Positions 22,301 to 51,294 of a stretch of DNA of 64,000 nucleotides are shown here, one piece after another. The stretch lies in assembly GCA_965644295.1 (NCBI GenBank), contig CBFFRP010000066.1, forward strand, positions 248,001 through 312,000, in the 5' to 3' direction. The notes under the pieces were generated by a model. The model was not told the origin of the DNA. It worked only from the letters and a program-made list of their open reading frames with translations, and did no database searches. The stretch is from Paraphysomonas bandaiensis. Lineage: Eukaryota; Protista; Chrysophyceae. The position numbers and the translations under genes were made by a program. Every line of letters begins with the position of its first letter. Positions within the stretch are counted from its first letter, which is position 1.

Positions 22301-24869
22301 TTGATTCGAGTCCCGCTTGACGATGAAAGGGTCACTAATGGAGCCAGAGATGGAAGAACAGTGACTACAACTGTTGCAGTAGAAGATCGAAAATCTTTTG
22401 TGTGAACAACCTTCACAGTCAGCTGATGAACGCTATTGATCATCGAATCGCTGTTATTCTGAGGAACAGATACTGACACCTGTGAAGGTGAAATAGCTGA
22501 CATAACCAAGTCACTGACAGCTTTGTATGACGGATAGGTTTGTGCACAGGTAAAGGCAAACGACAATTCCGCACCAATTCCTGTGGCTTCGTTATTATCT
22601 TCATCGTAGCTTCCAGACGCATCAACATATGTTGAGCTATCCGTTCGAACACCTCTACTAGATGATCCAGACACCTTCGCAACAACCAACCCTTTGACTA
22701 CTGTCACAGACACCGAAGCAGAGGAATACTTCAACGAATCTGTGTGCTGAGCTGTCAGGGTTACAGTATATACAGTCCCAACTTCCAGAGTGTAAGGCAA
22801 CAACTTGAACGTCCGCGGGTCACTCGCTTGAGAAACTAAGCTGAGAGGGGCCCCTTGTGCAAATATTTTCCAAGAATATTGTATATTCGCAGTGCTGGTC
22901 GCCCCACCACATACGGAGGTGTAAGCTTGACCAGTGACTGATAGCGGAGAATATCTGTACTGCAACCTCAGCTTCTTAGAATTCAATGATACTACAGGAA
23001 CATTCTCAGATAAAGAAACAACAAAAGAATGCGTTGACCTCCCACAACCACCGATAAAATTACACATAACTACAGAAATACTGTATGCAAATCCTGGATA
23101 CAGTACGGCCCGTGGCACTATCAAGACGCCTGATGCTTCGTAATTGGCGTTTAAATAAGCACTAACCAAGGAAACGTTCTCATGAGTTCCATACACATAA
23201 AATGATACATTCATAAAGGGGCGCCCCCCTGATCCCTTGGATCCAGAAATATCTATAGGTAGTGAGTCACATGGTCCAATCTGAGAAGGTGATATAATCG
23301 ATAGAGCGGGAACAATAGGCGTTTGCGGAGCATGTACTCTGATAGAGGCCAACGAACTAAATTGCCAAGTACTGCAAGTAGGACCGTTGTTCAGGACTTT
23401 ACATTTAGCTCGAATCTTATTAGCTCGTAGTGTAATTACATCAGACACACCAACTACTCCACTCGCCCCAGGAAATATCGACACTCTGGAATCATCGACC
23501 CATAGACACCTCGTATCCTTCTGAATACCGGGAAACGAAAACACATCCATGCAGTTGAAATTATTGGTATATCCTGCACGATTGGTGGGTGCATCAAACA
23601 GCACTAGAATCTTAGTTCCATCTTTAAGAAAGGTCGCAGATTTCAATACTGGAACCGCAGGTTCCGCATCAACAGCAAGCACAGTGATAAAACTTGAGGG
23701 AATATAGGATATGACATAATCACTTGCTGATAATCCTGACATTGTAAATACCAAGGCGTACACACCAGCGTGCTGGCGAATATACGCCACATACTCAACA
23801 GTTGACGAAGTGAAAACCACAGACGATGGGACAAACGGATATACTGTTGAGTTTTGAATGGCAGCCAATGATACATTTAAGTCATGAGGTATTACATCAC
23901 CAGCATCGAGCTTCAATGCAACAGCCGTGTCTTCTCCACTCGAGTACGAGGTCGCAATCAATTCAACATTTAAGGTTCGACAGCATGCCGTTTTTGCCGC
24001 TGATTTGGTCCCACGCATTAGATCATAATCCATTGGAGTGTCTAATGCTGAGTATGTAGCGCAGTACACATCATAATCTGAAGATGCAATTAAACCGTCA
24101 ATCATAAATGACACAGTCGTTGATGTAATCGATATCAAGTCATTGTGAAGAAGAAGAGTACTAACAGTAGAAGGAACAAATGAATCCGACGTTAGGTACG
24201 CTGCGCAAACGAGAGACCCTTCCGGTACATCAACAGCTACTGTGGCTGTAATCGAGCTAATTGTGCTGGATACAGTTATGCTCAATATATCCGATGCCAC
24301 TGATAACTCGGTAAAAGCTATGTGCAATATGTTTAATATCGTAGGATAAAGGGGTTTCTCAACCTCATCACATGGACTATCGTATATGATCGCAGATGGT
24401 TTAACAGTTGATGGCGTGCATGGAGAGCTGGTACAGTTCGCACACAGGAACGCCGAAGTCATGCTCCCACAACGGCCCACCATCCAACTCGTATCATGAC
24501 ATTTGAAAGACATGGAAGAAGAAACGGTTGCCTTGGATACTGACAGAAGTGTGGCCACAATATCAGCAGCAGTTGCGCTATCGTTACAAGTCACAGTCAC
24601 TAGTTTGAGGTCAGCTGAAAAGTCTGTTGTCGATATCATACTGAGAGAAGAAGCTGCATAGGTAATCAATGCTGTCGCAATATTGTCATTGACGAAAACA
24701 TCCCATTCGTCACATGTACCGTATCCACGTTCACTCCTGACTACTAAGCTCGCAAAAGTACTTCTCGTTCCGAGGTTAATGCCATTGATATATGTATCAT
24801 ATTTCTCTTTCCACAGTGTCATGAATGATGTGGACGGAGACAGAGAAGGTACAAACGTAGGACTCATGG

Positions 24870-27435
24870 AAAGTGTTGGTGGCAAAGTTGGATAGTGAGT
24901 AACTGTAGGAACTGGCGCGTATGTTGGTCGGTAAGTTGGAGATGACGTAGGTGCTTTAGTAGGAATACTAGTAGGTAAAAATGTGGGAAACCTTGTAGGT
25001 AATATTGTAGGTTTGGATGATGGCACTGAGGTGGGATAAGAGCTGGGATCACTAGTGGGGATGTATGTGGGTTGCCCAGTCGGCTCCCCACTTGGCTGCC
25101 AACTCGGAACTGCGGTTGGCATAGTAGATGGTATACTAGAAGGTTGACTACTAGGCGAGGCACTTGGGAACGATGAAGGCTGCCCAGATGGGTTCTCAGA
25201 AGGCTGGCCACTAGGCTGTCCAGAAGGTTGGCCAGTGGGTACTCTTGTGGGTTCTCCTGAGGGTTTCCCAGAAGGTCGGCTAGTAGGCCCATCAGTAGGT
25301 TCGCCTGTAGGTTGGCCCGTGGGTTGCCATGTAGGTTCCCCTGAAGGTTGGCCGGAAGGCTCACCCGTGGGTTGTCCTGTAGGTTCCCCTGACGGCTGAC
25401 CAGACGGTTCACCTGTGGGATGGCCAGTAGGTTCCCCGGAAGGCTGAGCACTAGGCTGGCCTGTAGGTTGGCTGGAAGGTTCAGCTGTTGGTTGGCCAGT
25501 GGGCTCTCGGGAAGGCTGAGCACTAGGCTCGCCTGTAGGTTGTCCTGTAGGTTCCCCTGAAGGTTGGCCGGAAGGTTCCCCGGAAGGCTGCGCACTAGGT
25601 TGACTTGTAGGTTGGCTAGAAGGTTCAGCTGTGGGTTGGCCAGTGGGCTCTCGGGAAGGCTGAGCACTAGGTTCGCCTGTAGGTTGGCCCGTGGGTTGCC
25701 ATGTAGGTTCCCCTGAAGGTTGGCCGGAAGGCTCACCCGTGGGTTGTCCTGTAGGTTCCCCTGACGGCTGACCAGACGGTTCACCTGTGGGATGGCCAGT
25801 AGGTTCCCCGGAAGGCTGAGCACTAGGCTGGCCTGTAGGTTGGCTGGAAGGTTCAGCTGTTGGTTGGCCAGTGGGCTCTCGGGAAGGCTGAGCACTAGGC
25901 TCGCCTGTAGGTTGTCCTGTAGGTTCCCCTGAAGGTTGGCCGGAAGGTTCCCCGGAAGGCTGCGCACTAGGTTGACTTGTAGGTTGGCTAGAAGGTTCAG
26001 CTGTGGGTTGGCCAGTGGGCTCTCGGGAAGGCTGAGCACTAGGTTCGCCTGTAGGTTGGCCCGTGGGTTGCCCTGTAGGTTCCCCTGACGGCTGACCAGA
26101 CGGTTCACCTGTAGGATGGCCAGTGGGTTCTCCGGAAGGCTGAGCACTAGGTTCGCCTGTAGGTTGGCCCGTGGGTTGTCCTGTAGGTTCCCCTGAAGGT
26201 TGACCGGAAGGTTCACCAGTGGGTTGTCCTGTAGGTTCCCCGGAAGGCTGACCAGACGGTTCACCTGTGGGATGGCCAGTAGGTTCCCCGGAAGGCTGAG
26301 CACTAGGTTGGCCTGTAGGTTGGCTGGAAGGTTCAGCTGTTGGTTGGCCAGTAGGTTCTCCGGAAGGCTGAGCGCTAGGTTCGCCAGTCGGTTGGCCCGT
26401 GGGATGGCCAGTAGGCTCCCCTGTGGGTTGGCCAGTAGGTTCCCCGGAAGGCTGAGCACTAGGTTCGCCTGTAGGTTGGCCCGTGGGTTGTCCTGTAGGT
26501 TCCCCTGAAGGTTGGCCAGTGGGTTCTCCGGACGGCTGGCCGGAAGGTTCACCCGTGGGTTGTCCTGTAGGTTCCCCGGAGGGCTGACCAGACGGTTCAC
26601 CTGTAGGATGGCCAGTGGGTTCTCCGGAAGGCTGAGCACTAGGTTCGCCTGTAGGTTGGCCCGTGGGTTGTCCTGTAGGTTCCCCTGAAGGTTGGCCAGT
26701 GGGTTCTCCGGACGGCTGGCCGGAAGGTTCACCCGTGGGTTGTCCTGTAGGTTCCCCTGACGGCTGACCAGACGGTTCACCTGTAGGATGGCCAGTGGGT
26801 TCTCCGGAAGGCTGAGCACTAGGTTCGCCTGTAGGTTGGCCCGTGGGTTGTCCTGTAGGTTCCCCTGAAGGTTGCCCAGTAGGTTCTCCGGAAGGCTCAC
26901 CCGTGGGTTGTCCTGTAGGTTCCCCTGAAGGTTGACCGGAAGGTTCACCCGTGGGTTGTCCTGTAGGTTCCCCGGAGGGCTGACCAGACGGTTCACCTGT
27001 AGGATGGCCAGTGGGTTCTCCGGAAGGCTGAGCACTAGGTTCGCCTGTAGGTTGGCCCGTGGGTTGTCCTGTAGGTTCCCCTGAAGGTCGGCCGGAAGGT
27101 TCACCTGTGGGTTCCCCTGACGGCTGGGCACTAGGTTGGCTAGAAGGTTGCCCTGTCGGTTTTCCAGATGGTACTGCTGAAGGCTCGTTAGAAGGTTCAC
27201 CTGTAGGTTGTCCTGTAGGTTCCCCTGAAGGCTGACCAGACGGTTCATTAGTAGGTTGGCCAGATGGTTGTCCTGTTGGTTCACCAGATGGCTGTCCAGT
27301 AGGGATTCCAGATGGCTCACCTGTGGGTTGACATGACGGCTGTTCTGTAGGACCAGATGGTTGCGCACTAGGTTGTCCTGTTGGTTGACATGACGGTTGT
27401 CCAGAAGGGAAAGAAGTCGGTGCAGATGTGGGTAT
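24870..27435 (-). repeat. Expanded PT-type stalk repeats of gene 2 (~2.6 kb)
   Basis: About 200 tetrapeptide P-S/T-x-Q/E units with larger internal duplications. Confidence 0.92.
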
Positions 27436-27520
27436 CAAGCATTCATGGTAAGCGGCTTGTGTGAGGTAGAAGGTTGATAATTGAGTCATTGTGCATAGCT
27501 CGGAAGGGTACACTTGTGAA

Positions 27521-29392
27521 CATATTGTCCTCACCCCTTAGAATTCGTAATTTGGTTAGATTGGAAAAAGAGTCGGGGAGAGGACCCGATAAGAAATTGG
27601 AATATAGATAGAGATAAATAAGAGAAGTCAGCTGACCCAATGATGAAGGAAGAGGACCCGTTAAGAAATTGGAATTTAGATCGAGATAACTAATAGAAGT
27701 CAGCTGACCCAATGATGAGGGAAGAGGACCCGTTAAGGAATTGGAATATAGATAGAGATAACGAAGAGAAGCCAGCTGACCCAATGATGAAGGAAGAGGA
27801 CCCGTTAAGGAATTGGAATTTAGATCGAGATAACTAATAGAAGTCAGCTGACCCAATGATGAGGGAAGAGGACCCGATAAGAAATTGGAATATAGATAGA
27901 GATAACTAATAGAAGTCATCTGACCCAATGATGAGGGGAGAGGACCCGTTAAGAAATTGGAATATAGATAGAGATAACGAAGAGAAGTCAGCTGACCCAA
28001 TGATGCGGGGAGAGGACCCGTTAAGGAATTGGAATATAGATAGAGATAACGAAGAGAAGTCAGCTGACCCAATGATGCGGGGAGAGGACCCGTTAAGGAA
28101 TTGGAATATAGATAGAGATAACGAAGAGAAGCCAGCTGACCCAATGATGAAGGAAGAGGACCCGTTAAGAAATTGGAATATAGATAGAGATAACTAATAG
28201 AAGTCAGCTGACCCAATGATGAGGGGAGAGGACCCGATAAGAAATTGGAATATAGATAGAGATTACGAAGAGAAGTTAGCTGACCCAATGATGCGGGGAG
28301 AGGACCCGTTAAGGAATTGGAATATAGATAGAGATAACGAAGAGAAGCCAGCTGACCCAATGATGAAGGAAGAGTACCAGCTAAGTAATTGGAATATAGA
28401 CCGAGATAACTAAGAGAAATCATCTGACCCAATGATGTGGGAAGAGTACCTGTTAAGGAATTCCCATATAGTTGGAGAGCACGAAGAGAAGTCATCTGAC
28501 CCAATGATGTGGGGAGAGTACCGTTGAGAGAGTTGGAACCAATATCAAAATATGTCAATGCAGTCATACCACCGATAGAGGACGGGAAATAACCCGTTAT
28601 GGAGTTGCCATAAAGATGGAGAGCACGAAGAGAAGTCATCTGACCCAATGATGAGGGCAGTGTACCAATGAAAGAGTTGTAACCAATATTTAAAGATGTC
28701 AGTGTAGTCATATTACTGATAAAAGACGGGAGATAACCCGTTAAGGAATTCCCATATAGATGGAGATAACTAATAGAAGTCATCTGACCCAATGATGAGG
28801 GGAGAGTACCGATGAGAGAGTTGGAACCAATATCAAAATATGTCAATGCAGTCATATCACTAATAAAAGACGGGAGATAACCCGTTAAGGAATTCCCATA
28901 TAGACGGAGATAACTAATAGAAGTCATCTGACCCAATGATGAGGGGAGAGTACCGATGAGAGAGTTGGAACCAATATCCAAATATGTCAATGCAGTCATA
29001 TCACTGATAAAAGACGGGAGATAACCCGTTAAGGAATTCCCATATAGACGGAGATAACTAATAGAAGTCATCTGACCCAATGATGAGGGGAGAGTACCGA
29101 TGAGAGAGTTGGAACCAATATCCAAATATGCCAATGCAGTCATAGTACTGATAAAAGACGGAAGAGAACCCGTTAAGGAATTCCCATATAGACGGAGATA
29201 ACTAATAGAAGTCATCTGACCCAATGATGAGGGAAGAGGACCCATTAAGGAATTGGAATTTAGATCGAGATAACTAAGAGAAGTCATTTGACCCAGTGAT
29301 GAGGGCAGAGTACCACTGAGAGAGTTGTAACCAATACTCAAATATGTCAATGCAGTCATATCGCCGATAGAGGACGGGAGAGATCCTGATAT
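27521..29392 (-). repeat. LRR array of gene 2: 26 x 72 bp
   Basis: Start-to-RGE distance is 21 x 72 bp shorter than in gene 1; runs of near-identical YLYLYSN units. Confidence 0.93.
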
Positions 29393-29889
29393 CCCTCCAA
29401 AAAATAAGCTCACTCCGGTTATGTTCGATCCTGTGCAGGTGACTCCAGTGAAAGTGCACTTATTCCCCACATCCGCACAGGTCCACTCAGACCGTATGGA
29501 GGTAACATCAGTCGCCTGAATGAAGTCACACAGCGCTGCCTCTTGAGAGACAACTGAGGCAACTGTGAGTGTTACGATACGAGAGTGAAATAAACTGATA
29601 AGCAGACATACACAGCGAATGGATGGATTCATATGGATGTATATGTATATGTATATGAAAGCATGGAATAAAATATACGAGAGTTTATGTTATGGTGTTA
29701 CGCTATTGCTGTAGCTGTATGGATAAAGCGCGTTGTTGAACATCCTGGAGTACCAAAGACAAGTCGAAGTATGTTCTGGGGGGTTATAATGTTATCAACC
29801 AGACATTTATATATAAATATCAGGTGTTTTAGTATATTTTTGCTTGGAATATTGGATTTTGGCTATAAGAAAATCCGTTATTTTTTTAA

Positions 29890-30306
29890 GGGCCCGTTCG
29901 GTTCATCCAATGGATTTTTGTGCTGGATTTGCATTCGCTGGATTTGCATTCGCTGGATTTGCATTCGCTGGATTTTTGAGAAATTCCACTGGTTGAAAAT
30001 GCACTGTATTTGGGTAATCCAGCAAATGGGCATAGCACTTACTACCGAACGATTGCCACATCCGGTATACGTGTATTTAACGCATATACTGTATGTATAA
30101 TCGTGATTCAAAAATCCAGCACTTCTCAAAAATCCAGTGAATCGTCTTTCGACTCAAAACACGAAACTAATTTCGCTGGATTTTTTCCAGCAAATGAGCA
30201 TATTTTGCTTTTTTGCGTTCGGTAAGATTTTCCAAATTCCAGTGGATGGACGAAATCCAGCGAATTTGAGCAAATCCAGCACTTTTTTGGTCTACCGAAC
30301 GCACCC
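29890..30306. mobile_element. PIF/Harbinger (Tourist-like) MITE, 417 bp, TAA target-site duplication
   Basis: TAA at 29887-89 and 30307-09; 13-bp TIRs GGGCCCGTTCGGT / ACCGAACGCACCC (11/13); subterminal GCTGGATTT motifs on the left (15-bp tandem x3) and AAATCCAG motifs on the right. Confidence 0.85.
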
Positions 30307-30319
30307 TAATATAATATAC

Positions 30320-30868
30320 TGTATGTATTGTATGTATGTATGTATGTATGTATGTATGTATGTATGTATGTATGTATGTATGTATGTATGTATGTATGTA
30401 TGTATGTATGTATGTATGTATGTATGTATGTATGTATGTATGTATGTATGTATGTATGTATGTATGTATGTATGTATGTATGTATGTATGTATGTATGTA
30501 TGTAGGTATGTATGTAGGTATGTATGTATGTATGTATGTATGTATGTATGTATGTATGTATGTATGTATGTATGTATGTATGTATGTATGTATGTATGTA
30601 TGTATGTATGTATGTATGTATGTATGTATGTATGTATGTATGTATGTATGTATGTATGTATGTATGTATGTATGTATGTATGTATGTATGTATGTATGTA
30701 TGTATGTATGTATGTATGTATGTATGTATGTATGTATGTATGTATGTATGTATGTATGTATGTATGTATGTATGTATGTATGTATGTATGTATGTATGTA
30801 TATCGGATATGGGTTTGTATGTATGTATGTAGGTAGGTAGGTAGGTATGTATGTATGTATGTATGTAT
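30320..30868. repeat. (TATG)n microsatellite, ~550 bp, with TAGG variants
   Basis: Directly visible; source of the spurious MYVC ORFs. Confidence 0.98.
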
Positions 30869-30979
30869 GGGTATATGGACAGCGGTGGTATGTATCTACA
30901 CCATTACTGTTAAGTGGTCTACCTCTCTAGGTCTCTTATCTCCTCTGCTCTCTCACCTCTCTCATATCTGATCATCTCG

Positions 30980-33555
30980 ATGAAGAAAGCCACTGAACGA
31001 GATAAACTTTTAGGTCCATATACCATATATATATATATATATCTGTATGTATATGTATGTATGTATCATCATATATTTATAGTACTGTATATATGTATAT
31101 AACACTGTGTATATATAACATATGTACATCTATAGGCCCTAGTAGTGGGGGACTAACCAAAAACCAACACTACATGTCTGCTTCCGCTTTCCTCACTGTA
31201 GCCGAAGAGATCAATCGACAAAGACAAACTACAGCCCATCTATCTCGTAGTGCATCTATAGGCATAGATATGACCCCCTCTGCACTCAACCCCATACGAG
31301 AGGTATCATACGTTATATATAGCTGTTATACATAGCTGTTATATATGGTTGTTATATGTATATGTTATATGTGTATATGTTATATAGCTGTTATATAATG
31401 CTGTTATATGTTATATATAGTTGTTGTATGTGTATATAGTGATATCCCCTCACGAACTGTCTCACTTGTTATACGTATGGTATATAGGTATTCATTTTGT
31501 TAAATGTATAATGTAGTTTTGAACCCCATACGGGAACCTCATACGTATAAAAACATCTTGCTATACCCTCATTTTTAATATAGGGACAAAGGAGGGCATT
31601 GTATGGGACATTGCCGTTTGTTTCTGCATTTGGAATGACCAAACGTGAGAATGAGATTCGGAAAGTCTTATCGTCAGTTAGTCACAAGTCACTCACTGAT
31701 CTTGCAAAGGAGTCTGAGGTATATACATATTATCACGTCATTTGGGGGGATTAGAACTTAATTTTGTATGTGTAGCATGCAGAAATGTTGGAGGAAGTTG
31801 ACGTCGATGAGGTATTACAATTATTTATTTTTGTCTTGAGTGTCTTCCTGTACGCCCGGTTGATTTATGTTTCTCATGGGATGCACTAGATTATTGTGAC
31901 CTTCCCACTGGTAATGGCAGTGTTAGTTGCTATTATTTCCCAGTTCCTTGTGGGATACAATACAGCGGTTATGAATTCACCGGAAGGGGTAGTTTTTCCG
32001 GGACACTCAACGGCAGAGTGGTCTTTTGCAGTCTCAGCTTTTGCCATAGGTGAGTACAATTGTATATCGTGGTGTATGGTAGTGACTATGAAAACCCTGG
32101 AATTTGTTACATCTGACTATAGGTGGTCCCCTGGGAGCAATTGCTGGGGGTCTTTTGGCCAACAAAAGAGGACGAAGGTGGTATTGTGTACTTTTAGCAA
32201 TTGTTTCTGAAGTTGTTGTAGAGGGGCTATGCTGGTAAACAGTTGGATATTCCTCTTCGGAGGCCTTATATTGACTCTGGCACCAAGTATTCTATGGATC
32301 ATACCCGCTAGACTTATTATCGGTTTCGCCTCCGGCTTGTCGTCTGTTGTGGTGCCCGTGTATTTAGGTACTTGTCGCGGAATTGTGTATTGTATAATAT
32401 GTTGCCATCATCTGTAATTTCCTGCCAGTAACCTGATTTTGATCGTGCGTGCAGGTGAAATTGCACCCCCTACGCTTCGTGGAACTCTTGGTACATGCAC
32501 TCAGTTCGCAATGGTGACAGGCATACTTGTCAGTGCTCTGATGGCTTTTCCTTTGGCAACTGCAACCCTATGGCGGTGGCTTTTCGCTGTGACGCCCATA
32601 TTAGCTGGCTCTCAGCTTTTGGTTTCTCCTTTCCTCTTGGAATCTCCTAGATGGCTCTTGAATCATGATGAAAATTCGAGTGTCGCTAGGTACTACTTAT
32701 TCTGTATAATTGTCAGATTAATGTATTTACTACAGGGTAGTGATAAAGGCTCTACGTGGATTCCGTTCTGACGAAGAAATTGAGAACGAAGTCCAAAATT
32801 TCATGTATGCATCGTCGAAACACAAAACTTCCCGTTCTAGTGCCCACTCCTCTGGGGCCATGTGGGACCTATTGCACGCTAAGGATGTGCGCATACTGGT
32901 TGTCTCTGTCATTGTGCTCCAAATGGCTCAACAACTATGCGGTATAAACGCTGTGTTTTACTATTCCTCGATGTTTTTTGATGGCGTTCTAAGCAACCCT
33001 CTACAAGGTACTGCCCTAGTATCGTTTATTAATGTTGTAGCTACATACGCTGCTCTTAAGTTAATGGACGACACCAATCGCCGCACTCTCCTTCTTTGGT
33101 CCGCTGGTGGGATGTTGATTTCAACAATATTTATTATAGCAGCCTTACTGCACGTAGTTCCAAATATTGTCGCCTTGGTCGCAGTGATGGCTTTTGTTTC
33201 ATTCTTCGAGATCGGCCTGGGTCCTATTCCTTGGTTAATTGTTGCAGAGATGTTTGATGCAAAGTATGTCGCCACTGCTATGTCAATGGCATGCATTGTG
33301 AACTGGGCCTGTAATTTTCTTGTCGGCTTGTTATTTCCTTTCATGCAGCAATCATTAGGGGCATATAGTTTTGGACCGTTTGGTGTGGTTCTTGTTGCAA
33401 CATATTTCTTTACCTATCTACAGTTGCCTGAAACCCACGGTAGATCGGTGGAGGAAATTCAACGACTGGTAGGTTCTGGAGATGAAGAAGTGAGACGAGC
33501 GATTGAGGTGATCGAAGGAATAGACGATTATGACTTTGGGGATGATGCCCTGTAA
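30980..33555 (+). CDS. MFS sugar porter (GLUT/SLC2-like hexose transporter), about 9 exons
   Basis: Motifs [72 protein letters not shown] introns link the pieces in frame (e.g. exons 30980-31013, 31136-31302, 31584-31718); the first donor (GTCCAT) is weak so the 5' end is less sure. Confidence 0.9.
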
Positions 33556-34141
33556 CGAGCAAGTATTTCAGTTGGATTGATCATTGCCACTTGTGTTTTG
33601 GTGTCTTGCGGGGATGTGTGTACTGGAGGGTTCTAGTTAATTTATAGCACTACCCAGATATAATATAACTAATGATATTATTTATGTTTTACGAAAGCCA
33701 ATACCTGTGACTGTAGAAACCAAAACCAGACAATTACAGACACATTTCATTGACATGATACATAGCAATAACAGGTTTTTAATATTGTCGTTAATTTAAA
33801 CTTGTCGCGATTGTCGATATATTGCGAAAATATTCCTGGTGCAATACTTTCGTGTTGAGAGTTCGACTGTATATCAAAATTTAAGTAGCGTACCCCTTAA
33901 ATGCAAGAGGCATTTCTTACAGTGTGTAGTATGCAGGTTGATCGTTTCTGTCATGAACACTAAAGATATTTTGAACATGTTATAATTTTCCTATCAATGC
34001 AATAATCGTGAGTTATATCAGCTTGCAATCCTTAAGTCTTATCAAAATCGAACATTACAAAATATGAGTACTTCAGTTTGGAATATTTCGTTGTGTAAGT
34101 TTCGGGATTTTATATTTATATATAGATTATATCACTACATA

Positions 34142-36253
34142 TTACACAGAGTTATGAGCAAGGATAGCAACATCTTGGTTCTGGCTTTCCTTCTTTCCGA
34201 AGCACGTAAATCTGTAAACTACAGTAGCAATCAGAATAACAAATACGACACATGCTATCACAATAGAGGCAATGGCTCCTCCAGACAGTTCATCATCATC
34301 ATTGCCATTTCCACCGCTGTAAGGTGTACTAGTAGCAGAGTTATTCAGCAGGACAAGGGCAACGCCATTAGACCAGCCGAACCCGACCTGAGGGGTATAT
34401 TCTCCCCCCCCGCCGCCAACGCCCACCTCAAAGGCATTGTACTTCTCATACATATACCCTGAAGTGTTGTAGGCTTCATAGTTCGTGGCAAGCCATTTAG
34501 AGGAGATGTCATTCTGTATACGCCATGACATGTGAAGTACAGAAGGTAACAGTCAAACTTACCGCCAACTGATCTGCTTCTGTCAACACCAGCCTCCTTA
34601 AGCCTTCTATTATGATCAGCACGAGAGGTGGCCATGCGTTGGGCGAGTCCCACTGTTGACCTGAATTAGTGGATGTAGTCAGTATACCGGCATCCTGTAT
34701 AAGACCGCTGGAAGAGAGAGATGCTAAAACGCATTCTCGAGATGACAATGATGTATCGGTAAGTCCACCCCACATGGGAATCCATGACGATATCGTGACA
34801 CCACCATCCCCATAGTTGGTTATAGATGATCCGGAAGTAATATTGAAATCATTCCACCTGTATTTTTAAGAACACCATATAGAAAACGTAATTAACGAGG
34901 CCAGCACAGGATAGTAGATGTCACACAATAACGAACATTGATAAAGGTCATAAGATTCCGGTAATTGAAGTATATTTCAAAGTAAATACCAACAAATCAT
35001 TCAGATATAAATTGCAATATATTCGCATTAATCCCGAAATACGAGACATGCTGTACAACGCTAACAGGGTGAACCTACACACATGCCACCTACCGGCATT
35101 GCTCTGCACTCCACAGAACTTCTTCTATGGCCAGCTTTCGTGCTTCAGCTGCGGCGCCATATACCTCCCCATCTTCACCAACAGCCAATGCAATTCGTTG
35201 CAAATTGAGCTCTAGTCGATACATATATGTGTTCAGGTCAGTGGGAATTATATGAGTGGTATCAATAGCTGACAAATTAAACGTGGGCGGGGAGGTAGGG
35301 TGAAGCCATCTGGAAGAGAAGTCCCAACCCGTTTCCGCTCCTGTGCGTATATTTTGGTAAAGCGCCTGCTGATATGGAGTTGATTCATTCCAAGATGAAG
35401 TTGCTGGGTCTACACCAGCAGTCTCAATATCCTCCAGGTAGGACTCCGGACGGGGTGCAGTACTATTACTGTGATATACATTTAACACATGATCTTTCCC
35501 ATTCATATTAACAACAACAGTGTGTCCCTTTAAAGGAGACATCCACCAACTATATTCTTTTTGAAGAAGTGGATAAGAATATGTTAATAAATCAGTTGTA
35601 TTACTTGAAGACCATCCCCAATAATCAGCTAATGAGATAATCATCTCTGATAATAGAGGAGGTTGACTACGATCAAGATAATATATACGTCCCCCATTAG
35701 GGACATATCCAAAATTATTAATATCATCTAGTAGGTTCCATATAACATACTGAGCAGTTTGTGGCATATCACAGACAAGAAGACCTTTAACAATCCATAA
35801 TGAATCCCAGTAATAACTTTCATGGAATCTTCCACCAGGGATAATCATGGGATACCTTCTAGGGACAAAACTAGATCGTTCAGGATATAATAATACAGAT
35901 TGATTAACTTGTTTTGATATAGTAGACCATAATTGATTTAAATCAGATGCCCATATACGATATGGTGGATATTGTATAGTGTCAATGAATTGTGGTGTAT
36001 TTGATAGATCGTTCGGGTAATATGAGAGTATATCACTACCTGATGCATAGAAATATGTGGATAGAAAGGTAGATAATTGATTAGGATCAGAAGTGTTAGG
36101 TATGGATCTATAAGCGGCATGGATTACAGAAGGATCGTATTTCATTGGCTGATCGACGAAGACTTTACTGTCATTGTAAATAAGTGATGTTTGAATGGAA
36201 TGAAGAATAGGACCGGTGCAGTATACACTGCATGCGAGAGTGATTGCTTCCAT
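34142..36253 (-). CDS. Alpha,alpha-trehalase (GH37) with C-terminal transmembrane anchor; exons ~36253-35094, 34857-34563, 34513-34142
   Basis: GH37 motifs DSKVFVD, PGGRFHESYYWDS, PNGGRIYYLDRSQPP, PRPESY, AETGWDFSSRW, QQWDSPNAWPP, MYEKY, GGGGGEYTPQVGFGWSNG; introns 34858-35093 and 34514-34562 keep frame; TM GAIASIVIACVVFVILIATVVY. True start uncertain (a hydrophobic in-frame stretch extends to a GTG at 36307). Confidence 0.9.
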
Positions 36254-36316
36254 GATGGTTAAGTATATGAATATATGGAGAAATGATACACTAACATATA
36301 CAAACACAGCTCACAA

Positions 36317-36402
36317 CCATATACCCATACATACATACATACATACATACATACATAACATGTACCTACCTACCTACCTACCTACCTACCTACATACATA
36401 CA
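36317..36402. repeat. (CATA)n/(CCTA)n microsatellite, inverted counterpart of 30830-30878
   Basis: CCATATACCCATACATACATAC...TACCTACCTACC. Confidence 0.9.
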
Positions 36403-36424
36403 TATAGCAGTATCCTCATTTGCA

Positions 36425-36711
36425 ATACTGAAATACGGTATATTTAATGGGTCATAAAAAAGGGCATTTAATAAAAAAACTCTGGATTTTTTTGTCTGAT
36501 CGACAAACAGAATTCTAGAATTGATCCTTGTAGACGACATTCAATTACAACCTGAAGATATTGTACAGTGTGTACCTCCACAAGTAATATCAGATATGTA
36601 AGTACCATATCCATATATAGGTATGTATGACTAGTAGAGTACATCATACCCCACAATGAAGTAACTCACTTCACTTCACTTCATTGTGTGATAACATGCA
36701 TTGAGAGGTCA
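36425..36711 (+). promoter_or_regulatory. Upstream block shared with gene 4 (50808-51119); putative promoter region
   Basis: ATACTGAAATACGGTATATTT.ATGGGTCATAAAAAAGGGCATTTAA, GTAGAGTACATCATACCCCACA and AACTCACTTCACTTCACTTC occur in the same order before both body-B genes. Function is inferred from position only. Confidence 0.5.
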
Positions 36712-36773
36712 TGTATGAGTTATGTATGTATATATGCATACAATAGAACACATTTTAGTGTCTATCAGTCGAA

Positions 36774-39700
36774 ATGAATCCATCCATTCGCTGTGTATGT
36801 CTGCTTATCAGTTTATTTCACTCTCGTATCGTAACGCTCACAGTTGCCTCAGTTGTCTCTCAAGAGGCAGCGCTGTGTGACTTCATTCAGGCGACTGATG
36901 TTACCTCCATACGGTCTGAGTGGACCTGTGCGGATGTGGGGAATAAGTGCACTTTCACTGGAGTCACTTGTTCAGGATCGCACATTACCTCAGTGGACTT
37001 ATATGATGATGGGATATCAGGATCTCTCCCGCCATCATTCGGTAATATGACCTCACTGACATATTTGGATATTGGTTACAACTCTCTCATCGGTACTCTG
37101 CCCTCATCACTGGGCCAGATGACTTATCTTAGTTATCTCTATCTACGTGACAATTCCATATCGGGTCCTCTCCCGTCATATATCGGTAATATGACTGCAT
37201 TGACATCTTTAAATATTGGTTTCAACTCTCTCATCGGTACCCTCCCCTCGTCATTGGGTCAACTGACTTCTCTTAGTTATCTCTATCTATATGACAATTC
37301 CTTGACGGGTCCTCTCCCGTCATCTATCGGTGATATGACTGCATTGACATATTTGCTTATTGGTTACAACTCCCTCAACGGTGCTCTGCCATCATCATTG
37401 GGTCAGCTGACTTCTCTGAGGTTTCTCTATCTCTCTGTCAATTCCATAACGGGTCCTCTCCCGTCATATATCGGTGACATGACTGCATTGACAGTTTTGG
37501 ATATTGGTGGCAACTCTCTCACCGGTACTCTGCCATCATCATTGGGTCAGCTGACTTCTCTTCGTGATCTCCGTTTACATTACAATTCCATAACGGGCCC
37601 TCTCCACTCATATATCGGTGATATGACTACATTGACACATTTGCATATTGGTGGCAACTCTCTCAGCGGTACTTTGCCATCATCATTGGGTCAGCTGACT
37701 TCTCTTTATTATCTCCATCTATATGGCAATTCCTTAACGGGTCCTCTCCTGTCATCTATCGGTGATATGACTGCATTGACGTATTTGCATATTGGTGGCA
37801 ACTCTCTCAATGGTACTTTGCCATCATCATTGGGTCAGCTTACTTCTCTTAGTTATCTCTATCTCTCTGACAATTCCATAACGGGTTCTCTTCCTTCATC
37901 AATTGGTGATATGACTGCAATGGCATATTTGCTTATTGGTGACAACTCTCTCAGTGGTACTCTGCCCTCATCATTGGGTCAGCTGTCTTCTCTTGTTGAG
38001 CTCTATTTCTATGACAATTCCTTGGCGGGTTTTCTCCCCGAATCTTTTTCCAGTCTAACCAAATTACAACTTCTAAGGGGTGAAGGTAATGTGTTCACAG
38101 GTGTCTACCCTTCCGATCTATGCACAATAACTACGTTAACAACCTTCTACCTTACACAAAACACTTACCACGAATGCTTGAGACCCACATCCGCACCGAC
38201 TCCTTTCCCTTCAGGGCAACCGACAATACAGCCATCTGTTCAACCTACAGGACAGCCTTCTGGGACCCCTACAGGACAACCATCTGGGACCCCTACAGGA
38301 CAACCATCTGGGATCCCTACTGGCCAACCATCTGGTAAACCTACAGGACAGCCTTCTGGTGAGCCAACAGGACAGCCATCATGTCCGCCATCTGGGACCC
38401 CTACAGGACAACCATCTGGGATCCCTACTGGCCAACCATCTGGTAAACCTACAGGACAGCCTTCTGGTGAGCCAACAGGACAGCCATCATGTCCGCCATC
38501 TGGGACCCCTACAGGACAACCATCTGGGATCCCTACTGGCCAACCATCTGGTAAACCTACAGGACAGCCTTCTGGTGGGCCAACAGGACAGCCATCATGT
38601 CCGCCATCTGGGACCCCTACAGGACAACCATCTGGGACCCCTACCAGACAGCCATCAGGTGAACCAACAGAACAACCATCTCGGATCCCCACTGGACAGC
38701 CATCATGTCAACCCACAGGTGAGCCATCTGGGATCCCTACTGGCCAACCATCTGGTAAACCTACAGGACAACCATCTGGGATCCCTACAGGACAACCATC
38801 AGGTCAACCCTCAGGACAGCCATCAGGTGAACCTACAGAACAACCCTCAGGTCAGCCATCTGGGACCCCTACAGGACAACCATCTGGGATCCCTACTGGC
38901 CAACCATCTGGTAAACCTACAGGACAGCCGTCTGGTGAGCCAACAGGACAGCCATCATGTCCGCCATCTGGTGAGCCCTCAGGACCACCATCTGGGATCC
39001 CTACTCGCCAGCCATCTGGTGAACCGACAGGACAACCATCTGGTGAACCTACGGGACAGCCATCTGTTCTACCTACAGGACAACCTTATCGGATCCCGAC
39101 AACACAGCCATCTGTTCAACCAAGAGGTCAGCCATCTGGTCAACCCTCAGGACAACCATCTGGGATCCCAACAGCACAGCCATCAAGTCAGCCATCTGTT
39201 CAACCTACAGGACAGCTATCTGTTCAACCTACAGGGCAACCATCTGGTCAACCCTCAGGACAACCATCTGGAATCCCAACAGCACCGCCGTCAAGTCAGC
39301 CATCTGTTCAGCCTACAGGACAGCCATCTGTACAACCAAAAGGGCATCCATCTGTTCAACCTACAGGACAGCTATCTGGGATCCCAACAGCACCACCATC
39401 AAGTCAGCCATCTGTTCAGCCTACAGGACAGCCATCTGGACAACCAAAAGGGCATCCATCTGTTCAACCTACAGGACAGCTATCTGGGATCCCAACAGGA
39501 CCGCCATCAAGTCAGTCATCTGTTCGACCTACAGGACAGCCGTCATATCCACCTACAGGACAACCATCTGGGATTCCAACAGGTCAGCCGTCATGTCAAC
39601 CTACAGTAGAGGCACCTGGGTTATCTACTGGGCAGCCAGCGTGTCAACCTACAGGACAGCCATCTGGGCAACAACATTCGACTTTTCCATCGACGCATGC

Positions 39701-42700
39701 TCCTTCAGTTGCACATTTACCTGAGATGTTACGTATGGTCTGGACCGCGTATCGAGATTACATTACACTTTCAATTCAGCTCTCAAATAGCGGTTATGTC
39801 TATTGCGCAAGCTTTGAATCTATGGTAATCGTCGACTCTGTAAGTTCTGTAATTTCTGCAAACAATTTTGACTATGTGAACGGCGTTTCTGTCAACGCCT
39901 CAATCTCGATTACATCTCTGACACCGTCCACGAATTACACACTTTATTGTGTCACGCAAAACAATGACTTGTTAGCTACCTCGTATGAAGAAATGCTCTC
40001 GAATGCAGTCGTTTGGAAAACTCTATGTTGTAAGAGCATATATGTGGATTTGAATATGCTTGTGCTGCAAGAATATAGTGTGGGCTGGAATATGGTTGCA
40101 GTTACCCTTTCGGCAGCTCCGTCATCTGACAGTGATGTGTGGATATCTGCTGAGGTGTCAAATAGCAGTGGTTCGTACACTGTATCCCCCTTTCTGGATG
40201 ACACTGTGACTGTTACGCATTCCTCATGGTCGAAGACACATTTCTTCACTGTCGCCAACTGTGCGCCGGGACTGTACACACTACAGGTGACGATGATGGA
40301 TTTTTCAGTGCAGCGGGAGTATGATGTGGTCTTCCGAAGTGGCCAGTCGTTCACTGTAGAGCCCTCTGCAGTAGAACCCAGCACCCCGCGTTTAACGTCA
40401 GCACAGTTCTCGAAGAGTGGTGAGTCCGCTGTCCTGAAATTTGATTCACCTACGGACAAGGCGCAATATTCCTCATATTTCAAGTGCTCTCGTCTCCTGA
40501 ATGTAGCTGGGGCCTCATCGTCAGACTGTCTTTGGACCTCGGCCACCACACTTACTGTGTATTTCAAAGGGCCTCTTCTTCCTGAAGTGGGTGATAGTGT
40601 GGTGCTGCTACCGGGTCAACTGCGAGCTCAATGCACCTCCACATCATCAGAGTGTACAGACTGGGCTACTGTGAACAGAACAGAGATGATTTTAGCTGCC
40701 CCCTACAACCCCATCTCACCAACGCTCGTTGTGACATACCCAAAGGTCTCCAGTCTCTGCGACAGACCTGTAATCGATATTACTGCCTCCTCTGGTTCTG
40801 GTGGTCGACCATGGAAGCACTTTAACATCACTGTGACCAGTGCTAGCAATACTGTTCATACAGTTCAGAAATGGCTTACAGAGAATTACGTGATTAGCCC
40901 ACCGCCTGCAATACCAGCCCAACTATTTCAAGGTGGTTATAGGTACATCTTTGAGCTATGGCTGTGCAATTTTCTCGGTGAATGCAGCTCTGCCATAGCT
41001 ATCATAAAAACAGTAAATGATATTCTGCCGTATGTTTCTATGGTGGGACAACTCTCTCGACAGATATTCACTTACACTCCTCTGGCACTGCAGTCGAATG
41101 CTTTTCTAAATGAATGCGATGGATCTGTATCGTATTCCAACTTAATATATGACTGGAAAATATTCGAGGGTGAAGTGGAGCACTCTGAGTTAGTGTCGTT
41201 GTCGAGTGACCCGAGAAAATTTAAGTTACCACCTTATTCTTTGAACGTAAGTTCTGTTTACGAAGTAAAGTTATCTGTGATAAGCTCTCTGTCGGGTCTG
41301 TCGTCGTCAGCAGTTGTATACGTGTCCGTAGTTCAGTCCAATATTGTGGCAATCATCGAGGGAGGATCACAGCAATCATTGCGAATCGGTGGGAGCGTGT
41401 TATTGGATGCATCTGGCAGTTATGATAAAAACATTCCACCCGAATTACGCCCTCCAGCTGAGAGCAGTGGGTTTGAATTCCGTTGGACTTGCATGCAGTT
41501 GTTTCCAGCTCTCCTTCTGCGGTGTGATGATTTGAATATACATTCGAATAGTATTACAACTCCACATTTACTACATATATTTACTACGAATAAGACAAAG
41601 GAGCACTCGGAGTATTCGATAAGTGTGGAAGTGCTTAGTGTTGCTGACGGCAGGCAAGCAGAGAGCTCAGTGGTTGTACGAGTGACTGAGGCATTGGCTC
41701 CGATTGTGACTATAAGGAGGAGCGAAGCAGCGAGTGGTGTCAACCCTTCGTCTTCCATGGTTTTGCTGGGAACTGTGCAATTAGATGTCGCCCAATCAGC
41801 ATTTTGGACCATCAACGAGCCTTCTGTTGCTCTCTCTTCTATCACATCTACGGCGACGTATGTATCACTAGCGAAAGGGCTACACTCCATCAATTTGGTG
41901 GTTAGTGCCGGCTCTATTCCTGGTCGGTCGGTTCCCTATGTGTTTTCACTTACCTGTGGCTCGTCCACAGCATCATTGACAGTGATTTTTAATACTCCTC
42001 CTCAGCCTGGTCTACTTGCAGTGTTCCCTCCCTCAGGTATAGCGTGGGATACAGTCTTTACACTCATTGCGGAGTCTTGGACTGATGAAGACTTGCCATT
42101 GTCCTATGCAATGGGTTATGTGGAGAATGACTACTATCCGATTGTGAGAAGTCGGTTGGAGACGTCTTATGTCAGCTCCACATTTCCACCTGGGGACAGT
42201 AAGAATGGATACACATTGTTGTGTTATGTTCGTGTGCTGGATAGTTTGGATGTAGGTTCTCTGTTGCAGGCGTCTGTTGTGGTTCGTTCCAATACATCCC
42301 TCTCGGCAACATTAGCAAGCGAGAAGTTTCGATTGGAACTAGAATCGAGTGGAAACAATATTGAGTTGACGAAGCAAATTCTCTCATTGTCTAGTTCTTA
42401 TCTGAACACCAAGAACTGCTCCTCAGCACCCAACTGTACCACTTTGAACCGTCACGAGTGTTTTAGTGTTGATCATACATGTGGATCATGCTTGACTGGG
42501 TATGTGGGAGAAGAGGGTGCATCTAATCATAGTTGTGTACCGGAAAGCGATTTGTTAACACCTTCTCCAGGTGTGGTTTGTGGTACTGACTATGACTGCA
42601 GTGTATGGGAGTACTGTAAGGATTCGGAGTCACCCTCCGTTTGTGATTATCGTCGGCAAACATGTACCGGCAACTGCTCGCATCGAGGCACCTGCATACT

Positions 42701-45700
42701 TCAGGACAGTGACAGCGGAGCTGCTGTGTCCGAGTGTATATTGATTGACTCTTCATGTGAGGCGAAGTGTCTGTGTGATAAAGGATTCAGTGGCTTGTTT
42801 TGTGAGTATACAGCTGAGGAGGCGAGAGTACGCACTAATATGAGAGAAGCCAATCTCAAGGAGTTAGATGGTGTCACTAGAGTGGATGATCCAACTGTGG
42901 AGTCGATTTTGGAGTGGCAACAAATTCTAGTTGCACTTACAACACAACCGAGTGAACTATCTGAAGTGGGGGCAGAGCATGGTCTCAATATTGCTGATGT
43001 GATTTTAAGTAATGCTACACTGCAAACGGTGGACACATATGAGGCGTACAGTGACACGCTGACAGCAGTAGATAGCATTGCCACTGTGTCAATGAATATT
43101 TTGTTATCCTCATTGACCTCGTCCAATATCACTCGTCACCGCAGTCTCCTTTTCAACGAGAGCTCATTCATCGCCTCCCGAGTTGCGTCCGCGCTGGACA
43201 CTTATGGGTCAGGTGTAAGACGATCTCTGATTGAGGGCCAACGCGGGAATCAGATTTTACGAAAGTCATTTCAACAAATTACAGAAGTTTTTTCCTTTTC
43301 AGTTAATAGTGAAGATATTTCAATGGCAGTACCACAGTCATTTGCAAAGACGTCGGCTGGATTACTGCCCTCGTCTTTCCAATTTCTTAGAAATAGTACT
43401 CGGCACCCCTCGCAGAGTTTGAAGGTTTCATTGAGTAGTATTCGGTCGAAGCTTTATGACAATGAGAATTACAATTCGGATGTGTTGCAAATGGCTATTG
43501 ATGGCTCGATGTACTCCAACGATTCTTTCAAGATAATTATACAAAATAATTATCCTATCTACTACGGCCGAGTACACGCCAACAATACCACATTTAACGT
43601 GACTTGTGATCGTGATGTGTACACCACTCACGTAGTACCCTGTCACCCGTCAGCTGTGAACGTCACTTGTAATGGCACTGCCGCAAATGTACGGCTACGT
43701 TGCCCGGATATTTTCTCTGCACCTCATTGCCGAGTCTTGTCTACCAGAGGGAACTTCAACTGCACAGTTGACTCCTATACTTCGTGGAACACCACATGCT
43801 TGTGTCAGCTCACTTCATCAGGATATCACTTCGGAGGTAATGACCTGTCATCGTATGATACAAACCCTTCTCCCTCTCAGCGACGCGTGGACGAGACAGG
43901 GCAAGAGCAGGCAATTCTGCGAGAGTCGGGGTATGTGGAGCTCGTGAGCACATCAGAGTACGTTGCTGGCGACTTTACTGCAACCGTTGTTCTGGCTCAG
44001 GAGTTCGATTCACCTGAGGACTTGCAAGCAGTACTTTTGGTTGTATCGTTGTTCGGAACAATTTGGGGCATGGGATTCCTTGCAATGTGTTATATGTTTG
44101 CAACGTCAGCGTATTTTTCCAAAAGTGAGAAATTAAAACAGTGTGCGACGACCCCGAGTCTTGACCTCAATAGTGCTTCCCAAAATGCAATTACCGCGGA
44201 TTCTATGAAAATGCGACTTCATTCATATGTAAAGGAGGTTTTTCCGGCAGTGTACAACGCAGAATCGCCGTGGAGTCGATTGTGGAGAGAGCTGAAGAGC
44301 CATCATCGTTACATAGCTTTAGTTCTCTCGAAAGACTACACGAATACAGTGAACCACAAAATTCGAGTGTTGTTACACCTGTTAACAACACTTTCCATGC
44401 TGATGTTTTTCCTGGCGTTGTTGTATGACTTTGAGGTAATTGCATTAATTATTATCATCCAACAATACCTATAATATATTATATTGTTTTTCGTCTTGCT
44501 AATGACGTTCATATAGTATCCAGAAGACAATGGAAAATGTGAGGCTCATACCACTGCCTCACAGTGCGCAACTGAGAAGTCGATGCTAGATTCATCCCAG
44601 AGAGTGTGTCAGTGGGTTGAAGATGACGACACGATTGGGGGGTACTCGTGTGTATTTGTTAGCCCTGAGGTTTCTCTGAAGGTACCTAAACTCCCTTTTC
44701 CATCTTTGCATTGGTCTTTACATCTCGTCTGTATGTGTTCATTAGGCTACCCTGATTGCCTCTGTTATATGTTCCATCTTCAGCATGTTCGGAAATGCAA
44801 TTGTCGACTTTATATTCGACATTCTAGCTGCTCCCACTGCATGTTGCTCTAGGGAAAATGCTGCTGAGCAAATAAATGGTCAGATCCAACGGCGTGTGTC
44901 TCAATTTGGCAAACGAGTGTCAGCCATAACTACAAATTTATCTGATCAATTTAGGAGTAGTGTGGGGAGGAAGAGAAAAACGTCGTCTTTTATAACGATT
45001 GAATCAACACGTCATCTGCCATATTCTTGTATTGCTGCCCAGCAGTTGGCGTTATCTTCGTTTGGCAGTATCGTGGCAGAAGTAAATCCATCGTTACAGT
45101 CCATTGAACGTCGTTCCAGTCGTAGTCAGCGCTTAAGCAGAAATACGGATGCATCCCACCCACATTCGAGTAGTTTCCAGTCCTATTACGGCATCTGTCC
45201 CGTAAGCCAACGGTCTGAGGGAGTGGATAATGTGGCAGCAATTCCGTCTACTATCCTGTCCATCTCAACGGATGATTTATATGCAGACCTATGTAGCGAT
45301 ATTGTGGAGCAAATGAGATACCTGAGAACCACTAGACAAAAGGATGCATTTATGATGGCCTGGTGGTATGTATAATGTTATGTTGTTCTATATTTTGTTG
45401 CTTTTAATGTGTTTCTTGCAGCTTGGGGAATAATGATCAATTCAAGCCAGAGTATGCGAGTATTATTGAGAAAAGACTGAAGGAACACCTTGCTTTTGTT
45501 CAGAAGGAAGTGGCTCTCAAGCGGAATAAATTGAATCAAATCGAAGACATATATATTGGTCTGGAGCTGCTCCACATGTTTGTGCTGGATGTCCTCGGTA
45601 GAGGTAAAAAGTGTTCATACGTTGCGCATTATGCGATATTGCAATCTTCACCACAATAAACGTACTTACCTACTTGGTGTATGTAGCTTCACCGGCAGCC

Positions 45701-48429: not shown

Positions 48430-48643
48430 AAAAGTGGAGGTTTTCTGTAAAAAAGCCTACATTCGTCCACTGTAACGAGAGTATCCACCATATTAACGAC
48501 AAAAGAAACTATAGGTTTATATAAAAGTGGAGGTTTTCTGTAAAAAAGCCTACATTCGTCCACTGTAACGAGAGTATCCACCATATTAACCACAAAAGAA
48601 ACTATAGGTTTATATAAAAGTGGAGGTTTTCTGTAAAAAAGCC
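48430..48643. repeat. 93-bp tandem repeat, ~2.3 copies
   Basis: AAAAGTGGAGGTTTTCTGTAAAAAAGCC starts at 48430, 48523 and 48616 with near-identical intervening sequence. Confidence 0.92.
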
Positions 48644-51207: not shown

Positions 51208-51294
51208 ATGAATCCATCCATTCGCTGTGTATGTCTGCTTATCAGTTTATTTAACTCTCGTATCGTAACACTCACAGTTGCCTCAGTTGTCTCT

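Follow-up and report, generated by a model that had tools for sequence, protein, structure and literature searches.

Organization of the locus

The window, i.e., the whole 64,000-nt stretch of Paraphysomonas bandaiensis DNA that was analysed (contig CBFFRP010000066.1, positions 248,001 to 312,000), contains four related genes, of which genes 1 and 2 carry one type of C-terminal body (body A) and genes 3 and 4, in inverted orientation, a second type (body B). The features are as follows:

1551..13978, minus strand: gene 1 (body A), 4123 aa, intron at 3362-3417
13785..13978, minus strand: head block of gene 1, with 2, 3 and 3 differences from genes 2, 3 and 4
17201..29632, minus strand: gene 2 (body A), 25 LRR units, intron at 19012-19067
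29439..29632, minus strand: head block of gene 2 (signal peptide and most of the LRR N-cap), 194 nt, with 1 difference from gene 3, 2 from gene 1 and 3 from gene 4
29633..36773, no strand: central segment between the inverted heads, with both promoters, a MITE-like element, (TATG)n, a sugar transporter (plus) and a trehalase (minus)
29771..29820, minus strand: gene 2 copy of an upstream motif of ~20-50 nt that each of the four genes has 100-270 nt ahead of its ATG
36774..46987, plus strand: gene 3 (body B), 3286 aa, 5 introns, frame open
36774..36967, plus strand: head block of gene 3, 194 nt, with its distinguishing synonymous base at 36836
51208..64000, plus strand: gene 4, extending past the window end, body B from ~62983
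51208..51401, plus strand: head block of gene 4, with 3, 3 and 4 differences from genes 1, 2 and 3

Gene 1 consists of a signal peptide, a cap, 45 LRR units, a C-cap, a PT stalk, a REJ domain and several predicted TM segments, while gene 3 exhibits 13 LRR units followed by PT stalk, REJ and predicted TM segments (LRR units of both genes as defined by the pattern used in this analysis). In gene 4, 86 LRR units are arranged in nine tandem cap-LRR-C-cap modules. Genes 1 and 3 have complete, open reading frames, whereas those of genes 2 and 4 are disrupted in the assembly used, the former by a 2-nt deletion near 27510 that shifts the frame in the C-cap and the latter by a stop-containing 87-nt insertion at ~56386-56485. 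The intron counts given in the preliminary description, one for A genes and five for B genes, were confirmed, and every intron is of the GT-AG type. The upstream motif was recovered as the best local alignment in all six gene pairs (p 0.002-0.032 each, against 500 shuffles).

Bodies A and B and their relatives

The two bodies had been described as aligning only at scattered motifs. Instead, they are colinear homologues with 27% identity over 1775 aligned aa (E 1e-163) and lie ~1.9 substitutions per site apart. The REJ domain (PF02010) was detected in both (E 6e-43 and 5e-42) and in 12 of 12 aligned members. Hydropathy analysis of the body indicates four to five strong TM segments, the first of which is preceded by a cysteine motif; the atlas gives a GPS cluster a score of 0.81, to be read as a lead only, with no Pfam GPS match. 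The C-terminal exons gave no Pfam match to PLAT or the polycystin channel, and a PDB search returned no match.

Relatives of the body carry other heads, namely FG-GAP, BNR/YCF48 or ice-binding domains, or almost none. The plant-LRR motif was found in none of 32 metagenome loci with the body, most of which end in the PT stalk or nearer, with the heads beyond the contig. A quick body tree covered 23 rows (three short rows dropped, ten near-duplicate or partial cluster members excluded), and a sister relationship of A and B was not rejected when the AU test was applied to 11 rows (p 0.21). Consequently, a recent graft of the head fits no better than an ancient LRR head subject to prolonged concerted evolution. 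Head residues 1-85 had no relative among 133 candidates (proteins of 1404-4470 aa), and a search of metagenome contigs for the C-cap/cap junction gave 258 pattern matches, none of them a relative. A search with the whole LRR module identified only generic plant-type LRR proteins, at identities of at most 51% among the best 120 of 1487 matches.

A near-identical block at the 5' end of the head

As first reported, genes 2 and 3 indeed differ at a single synonymous position (nt 63) within their initial 194 coding nt, and the next 106 nt contain 25 differences. This step at nt 194 is pronounced at synonymous sites (1 of 48 changed before it vs 12 of 42 after it, p 0.0005). The previously noted sharing of CTFTG by genes 2 and 3 and of SNITGVSLFFGG by genes 1 and 2 was also reproduced. 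The identity is, however, not peculiar to genes 2 and 3, as all six pairs of the four genes show 1-4 differences per 194 nt, with a head pS of 0-0.021. Between A and B, pS rises to 0.21-0.27 in codons 65-115, which cover the first LRRs; together with a body protein identity of 27%, this gradient fits concerted evolution. The LRR module (pS ~0.25 between A and B) is thus judged from sequence divergence to be younger than the bodies, and the 194-nt block (pS 0-0.02) younger still. Of the five variable sites in codons 1-64, four alter the amino acid, unlike what constraint on the protein would produce.

Within the A pair and the B pair, the heads do not resemble each other significantly more than the bodies do (p 0.23 and 0.18); body pS amounts to 0.031 for genes 1 and 2 and 0.066 for genes 3 and 4. 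Genes 1 and 2 show six synonymous changes in codons 65-115 where 1.3 would be expected from their bodies (p 0.002) and differ by 12% around the C-cap, an excess that points to outside donors for these segments.

The common unit exceeds the 194 nt and comprises promoter motif, signal peptide, LRR cap, LRR array, C-cap and the start of the PT stalk; DNA common to A and B genes thus begins at the promoter and ends within the PT stalk. Exact A-B matches are 49-52 nt in the LRRs and 38-39 nt in the PT stalks. Upstream, genes 2 and 4 are 87% alike over 55 nt of 5' flank and genes 3 and 4 are homologous over 357 nt (74%), while genes 1 and 2 have no common DNA beyond ~27 nt except the upstream motif. 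From nt 223, 15 sites follow the bodies and one gives a third grouping. The partner appears to change with the segment (2+4 in the 5' flank, 2+3 at nt 179, 1+2 vs 3+4 at nt 223-318), in a comparison of only four loci where the 2+3 grouping consists of one site. That heads were recently transferred or converted between bodies, as had been proposed, is supported by the head pS of 0-0.021, set against ~1.9 substitutions per site between the bodies; for a conversion specific to genes 2 and 3, nt 179 is the sole informative site.

Head blocks in other sequencing runs

The head block was uniform in four strains. In run X5, one 106-nt signal-peptide contig without differences had a depth of 896, compared with 104-126 for single-copy flanks; with depths read as contig means and not as true copy numbers, this related strain carries roughly 7-9 identical signal-peptide copies. 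In three runs, the same cap is also joined by another type of signal peptide and by several variants of the first strand. Contigs of X13 join the region upstream of gene 2 to the head, and those of X1, X3 and X5 run from the region upstream of gene 3 up to the start codon. The pairing of upstream regions with LRR arrays across the 131-nt identical core is that of this assembly alone, the run contigs being short-read and breaking at the heads. The gene-3-specific base at nt 63 is present in runs X3 and X8 and absent from the contigs of X5, X13 and X1, the last being the possible source run. In the RNA-like run X9, gene 3 was not seen among the contigs, which represent only other family members. 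Neither the missing gene 3 signal peptide in X9 nor the missing gene 2 upstream region in X8 carries weight, given low depth and the use of contigs.

LRR arrays and their variable positions

The LRR units form a patchwork of duplication and exchange, and the arrays on either side of the central gap are 72-89% complementary. At positions 5, 6, 8, 10 and 11, which we take from the textbook LRR motif to lie on the concave face, pN/pS was 3.5 vs 0.51 elsewhere, counted along the 134 edges of a minimum spanning tree that connects 135 distinct units; this is a count on recombining repeats rather than a codon model or formal site test, with the positions fixed after the units had been seen. The large excess of amino-acid change at these predicted concave-face positions indicates diversifying selection.

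Origin and maintenance of the shared head

We consider it probable (roughly 0.72) that one lineage-specific LRR head sits on two diverged PT-REJ-TM bodies, having been spread by ectopic recombination, and that its 5' end is homogenised by ongoing conversion among many copies. In this model, ectopic recombination likely carried the head from body to body, with the join presumably made in the repetitive PT stalk, and conversion among the many copies likely keeps the 5' end uniform. The signal-peptide/cap block would be homogenised as the sole long stretch of in-register homology, while conversion in the arrays would go out of register and thereby shuffle LRRs. The tempo would be that of slow germ-line evolution rather than of a programmed switch.

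Alternatively, a mobile cassette of promoter, signal peptide and cap might have been copied onto many genes in a single recent burst of duplication and transposition, with no continuing conversion. The motif common to the four upstream regions, the lack of excess head likeness within pairs and the otherwise unshared upstream DNA of genes 1 and 2 would fit such a burst, but the segments differ in age and partner, the promoter motif is only ~70-75% alike and neither terminal repeats nor target duplications were noted at the block ends, which makes it unlikely.

Quite improbable is a switch in which the inverted heads flip the 7.1-kb centre so that genes 2 and 3 trade promoters (phase variation), or in which LRR units are reassembled within a cell lineage. 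The inverted 194-nt arms with their 131-nt exact core, 7.1 kb apart, the differing promoters and the resemblance of gene 4 to a store of nine modules speak for it; against it, the arms are like any other members of a family with many copies, gene 2 carries a frameshift in this assembly and the window yielded no recombinase, either among its 28 ORFs of at least 150 aa (nine domain-scanned, the rest being gene 2 body or other frames over genes and repeats) or among nine shorter spacer ORFs scanned in the same 64 kb. In addition, the upstream homology of genes 3 and 4 means that no net flip is apparent since their duplication. An equally improbable variable-receptor system of this free-living marine protist would combine both processes: multi-module genes, gene 4 among them, would supply LRR modules that conversion reshuffles in clonal lineages, and inverted heads would flip promoters to give surface phase variation.

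That purifying selection on a protein, RNA or DNA element preserves the 194 nt is very doubtful. Signal peptide and cap are structural parts and the block is uniform in four strains, but synonymous sites are equally uniform, most variants alter the protein, the RNA fold is not unusual (z -0.19), Rfam has no match in the window and, as stated above, none of the 133 long-protein candidates is related to the head. Still less credible is an assembly or polishing collapse that made the heads look identical: although no long reads stand behind the comparison and X1 contigs carry the majority nt-63 base only, the four heads retain five variable sites, the nt-63 base recurs in X3 and X8, and other strains agree in both the junctions and the uniform, multi-copy head.

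The shufflon-like exchange of LRR arrays between bodies by a crossover within the heads, suggested by the inverted A and B pairs and their complementary arrays, is refuted by crossover geometry and has next to no chance of being correct: genes 2 and 3 diverge, so that only promoters, sugar transporter and trehalase lie between the heads, a simulated crossover swaps the upstream regions alone and leaves each array on its own body and both proteins unchanged, and arrays could be swapped only by crossing over within the C-cap or the PT stalk, the stalks of genes 2 and 3 matching exactly over 29 nt at most.

Comparison with known systems

The R64 shufflon and the Hin and Fim switches depend on a dedicated recombinase and on short specific sites; in the shufflon, coding ends are exchanged. 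They likewise involve a segment flanked by inverted homologous sequences, but a crossover here would exchange nothing but promoters, and the window yielded no recombinase. Lamprey VLRs also vary on the concave face and have a similar layout of N-cap, variable LRRs, C-cap and threonine/proline-rich stalk. In them, however, an empty gene is filled from cassettes in somatic cells, whereas genes 1 and 3 are complete here. In the stramenopile Ectocarpus, LRR genes similarly show fast LRR shuffling, gene birth and death, diversifying selection on repeats and a proposed recognition role; there, however, each repeat is one exon, while here a single very long exon, uninterrupted by introns, encodes the entire head. 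LRR ROCO GTPases and kinases differ in the body, which here is PT-REJ-TM.

Human polycystin-1 also starts with LRRs. REJ/polycystin-1-like proteins, including Ectocarpus Esi0130_0068 (PMC4700764), share REJ, a cysteine motif before the first TM segment and several TM segments, in contrast to which the genes described here have a long PT stalk, plant-type 24-aa LRRs, up to nine modules and no Pfam match to GPS or the polycystin channel. In zebrafish NLR-B30.2 genes, a positively selected recognition domain is exchanged by gene conversion across anciently diverged core groups (PMC4852459). A recognition domain shared over diverged cores and clustered multi-copy genes are common to both systems; the fish genes encode intracellular NACHT proteins with a C-terminal B30.2 domain, whereas predicted protist surface proteins with an N-terminal LRR module are found here (PMC4852459). 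We conclude that the locus probably represents domain shuffling and concerted evolution in an apparently undescribed, NLR-B30.2-like family of candidate variable receptors.

Implications for recognition in flagellates

The proteins are predicted cell-surface receptors and may recognise variable outside ligands such as prey, viruses, parasites or mates. Conversion combined with diversifying selection is a mechanism already well known in animals, plants and brown algae. Recognition of prey, viruses or mates by free-living bacterivorous or mixotrophic flagellates is little understood, and the locus provides a concrete candidate family for it, in which REJ-type membrane bodies have a swappable head slot, filled here by LRRs, and the predicted LRR binding face diversifies between copies. 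Domain shuffling is caught at two time depths, on bodies that are 27% alike, and as several strains are already sequenced, the family is open to direct study.

Gene Content and Organization

The window DNA is eukaryotic and its introns are of the GT-AG type. Four large genes share a single common design: each encodes a signal peptide, an LRR N-cap, plant-type LRRs of 24 residues, a C-cap, a stalk of PT repeats, a REJ domain and several predicted membrane segments, in this order. Two of them on the minus strand, genes 1 and 2, have body A and form a tandem pair with 96% identity across 9.6 kb; the second pair, genes 3 and 4 on the plus strand, has body B. The intron numbers given in the preliminary description, 1 for body A and 5 for body B, were confirmed. 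A sugar transporter gene and a trehalase gene lie tail to tail and separate both receptor pairs. These genes and the repeats of the window are:

31590-33555, plus strand: sugar transporter, between genes 2 and 3
about 34140-36250, minus strand: trehalase with a C-terminal hydrophobic segment, between genes 2 and 3
29890-30306: MITE-like element of 417 bp, bounded by terminal inverted repeats of 13 nt (11/13 match) and a TAA target duplication, situated some 260 nt upstream of gene 2
30325-30860: nearly pure (TATG)n of about 530 bp, following the MITE-like element and preceding the sugar transporter
294-594, 47702-48017 and 49173-49425: dispersed repeat, three copies of about 300 bp each, 75-84% alike
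48430-48643: 93-bp tandem repeat, about 2.3 copies at 99%

The MITE-like element, which we take to resemble a Tourist/PIF-Harbinger MITE, occurs in all four sequencing runs compared, at a depth mostly above single-copy in X3 and X5. The trehalase transcript is spliced in the RNA-like run X9, which also contains low-depth contigs of other receptor family members; among those listed, none is identical to gene 3.

A Head Block Shared by All Four Genes

A near-identical head on genes 2 and 3 had been described, and indeed their first 194 coding nt, encoding the signal peptide and most of the N-cap, differ at one synonymous position, followed by 25 differences in the next 106 nt. This identity is family-wide rather than peculiar to genes 2 and 3: the block differs by 1-4 nt in all six gene pairs, and eight further copies of its cap part are located inside gene 4, the nearest of which differs from the four heads at 2-3 of 99 nt. 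Recent common ancestry accounts for the identity better than constraint, because four of the five variable sites are amino-acid changes, the RNA fold of the head is ordinary (z -0.19) and an Rfam search returned no match in the window.

As far as contigs show, the identity is no assembly artefact. Collapse is made unlikely by the recurrence of the gene 3 marker base and of upstream-head joints in contigs of several runs: the base was seen in X3 and also in X8, where its contig has another upstream region (contigs of X1, X5 and X13 do not show it), an X13 contig leads from the gene 2 upstream region into the head with no differences, and contigs of X1, X3 and X5 carry the gene 3 upstream region as far as the start codon. 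In X5, 106 nt of the head are spanned without differences by a single contig at a depth of 896, compared to 104-126 in the flanks. This suggests some 7-9 identical copies, although depth is only a rough guide. At loose contig ends, a second signal-peptide type is joined to the same cap in three of four runs, and several distinct first LRR strands follow this cap. Because the contigs of every run derive from short reads and end at heads, it is the assembly as given that pairs each upstream region with its LRR array.

Layers of Different Age

Comparison of the four genes indicates that the shared unit exceeds the 194-nt head and that its layers differ in age. Synonymous difference (pS) is 0-0.021 for codons 1-64 in every gene pair and, when A genes are compared with B genes, 0.21-0.27 for codons 65-115; for the bodies (stalk, REJ and transmembrane part) it is 0.031 within the A pair and 0.066 within the B pair. 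The bodies had been described as deeply diverged and alignable only at scattered motifs; the divergence stands (27% identity), but A and B are colinear over 1775 aa. The longest exact A-B matches measure 52 nt for the LRRs and 39 nt for the PT stalks, downstream of which likeness is found at the protein level only. In the C-cap region, the nine modules of gene 4 are 15-19% different from genes 1 and 2, which differ from each other by 12%; the pattern used here did not pick up gene 3. A short upstream motif is common to all four genes (6/6 pairs, p 0.002-0.032); furthermore, 357 nt upstream of genes 3 and 4 are alike at 74%, and the final 55 nt upstream of genes 2 and 4 at 87%.

Movement or conversion of heads between bodies, as initially proposed, agrees with this family-wide sharing. 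For genes 2 and 3 specifically, 15 of the informative sites up to nt 345 follow the grouping of the bodies, one unites 2+3 and one separates 1+3 from 2+4; given the single 2+3 site, a direct exchange is possible.

It had also been suggested that a crossover within heads would swap LRR arrays between bodies in a shufflon-like manner. Genes 2 and 3 are divergent, hence just upstream regions lie between their heads. A simulated crossover at head nt 100 placed the gene 3 protein behind the gene 2 upstream region and vice versa and, since codons 1-64 encode an identical peptide, altered neither protein. An array swap requires a crossover past the arrays, and the PT stalks of the two genes share at most 29 exact nt. 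With only upstream regions exchanged and no recombinase-like ORF found among the window's 28 ORFs of 150 aa or more and 9 shorter spacer ORFs, the head-sharing system is not a shufflon. Occasional promoter inversion through ordinary homologous recombination is possible.

Diversification and Possible Decay of the LRR Modules

By pattern count, genes 1, 2, 3 and 4 contain 45, 25, 13 and 86 LRR units, which appear to diversify. Changes were counted over 134 minimum-spanning-tree edges joining 135 distinct 72-nt units. Five positions, presumed from the standard LRR motif to form the concave face, show 281 non-synonymous vs 29 synonymous changes (pN/pS 3.5) and the remaining positions 285 vs 220 (0.51; Fisher p 2e-27), pN/pS on recombining repeats being a count rather than a formal test. 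The concave positions are low in synonymous change; relative to all-position pS, their ratio is still 2.05.

In the gene 1 array (13100-10900), an atypical unit off the LRR consensus, MTAMTPFDIDENTFDSTLSPSLGQ, is amplified about ten times within a longer block. Gene 4 comprises nine complete tandem cap-LRR-C-cap modules (51208-61300), partly recent duplicates (56494-57434 vs 59896-60836, 96%), and its predicted protein would be longer than 6000 aa.

The assembled gene 2 carries a 2-nt deletion in the C-cap (about 27510). As assembled, the frame ends 20 codons later, predicting a secreted LRR-only protein, and the body frame of 2800 codons is still open. Gene 4 carries, inside an LRR (56386-56485), an 87-nt insertion with in-frame stops and an accompanying 13-nt direct duplication; no GT-AG intron reading was found by eye, and a near-identical later module lacks the insertion. 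Both lesions, seen in the assembly alone, would be as expected for a birth-and-death family.

An Interchangeable Head Slot

The body possesses a swappable head slot. None of 24 relatives found with body B shows an LRR Pfam mark, but many relatives are truncated within the stalk and LRR heads may therefore occur elsewhere; in some relatives (13 of the 24 scanned, and further members), FG-GAP or BNR/YCF48 heads precede the PT stalk. At a metagenome locus (L028:5717-7600), an ice-binding domain (PF11999, E 4.5e-47) is fused, with a PT stalk in between, to this REJ body and represents a further head type of the REJ-body family. Among eight body homologues looked up, the only one with a named source is a protein of the chrysophyte Epipyxis (27% identity), and marine metatranscriptomes contain part of the window DNA; a marine chrysophyte is thus the likely origin. 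Two trees place body B with its relative P0001 (support 96 and 97), apart from A; an AU test did not reject the A+B grouping (p 0.21). The LRR head may be either a recent graft onto the bodies or an old one under long concerted evolution.

Discussion

The body is reminiscent of REJ proteins, among them Ectocarpus Esi0130_0068 (PMC4700764), but gave no Pfam match to a PLAT domain or polycystin channel. Literature searches on LRRs in chrysophytes or Paraphysomonas, on REJ with LRRs in protists and on polycystins in stramenopiles returned no paper describing the family by title, most subscription papers lying outside their scope. LRR shuffling in Ectocarpus (PMC3341825) and Tetrahymena (PMC6564038) is similar, although here it operates without one exon per repeat. 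In its way of working, the pattern is like that of the zebrafish NLR-B30.2 family, where conversion moves a recognition domain under positive selection between groups of old divergence (PMC4852459). With a probability of about 0.7, these genes are a real case of heads shared across a whole candidate variable-receptor family, through domain shuffling and probably gene conversion.
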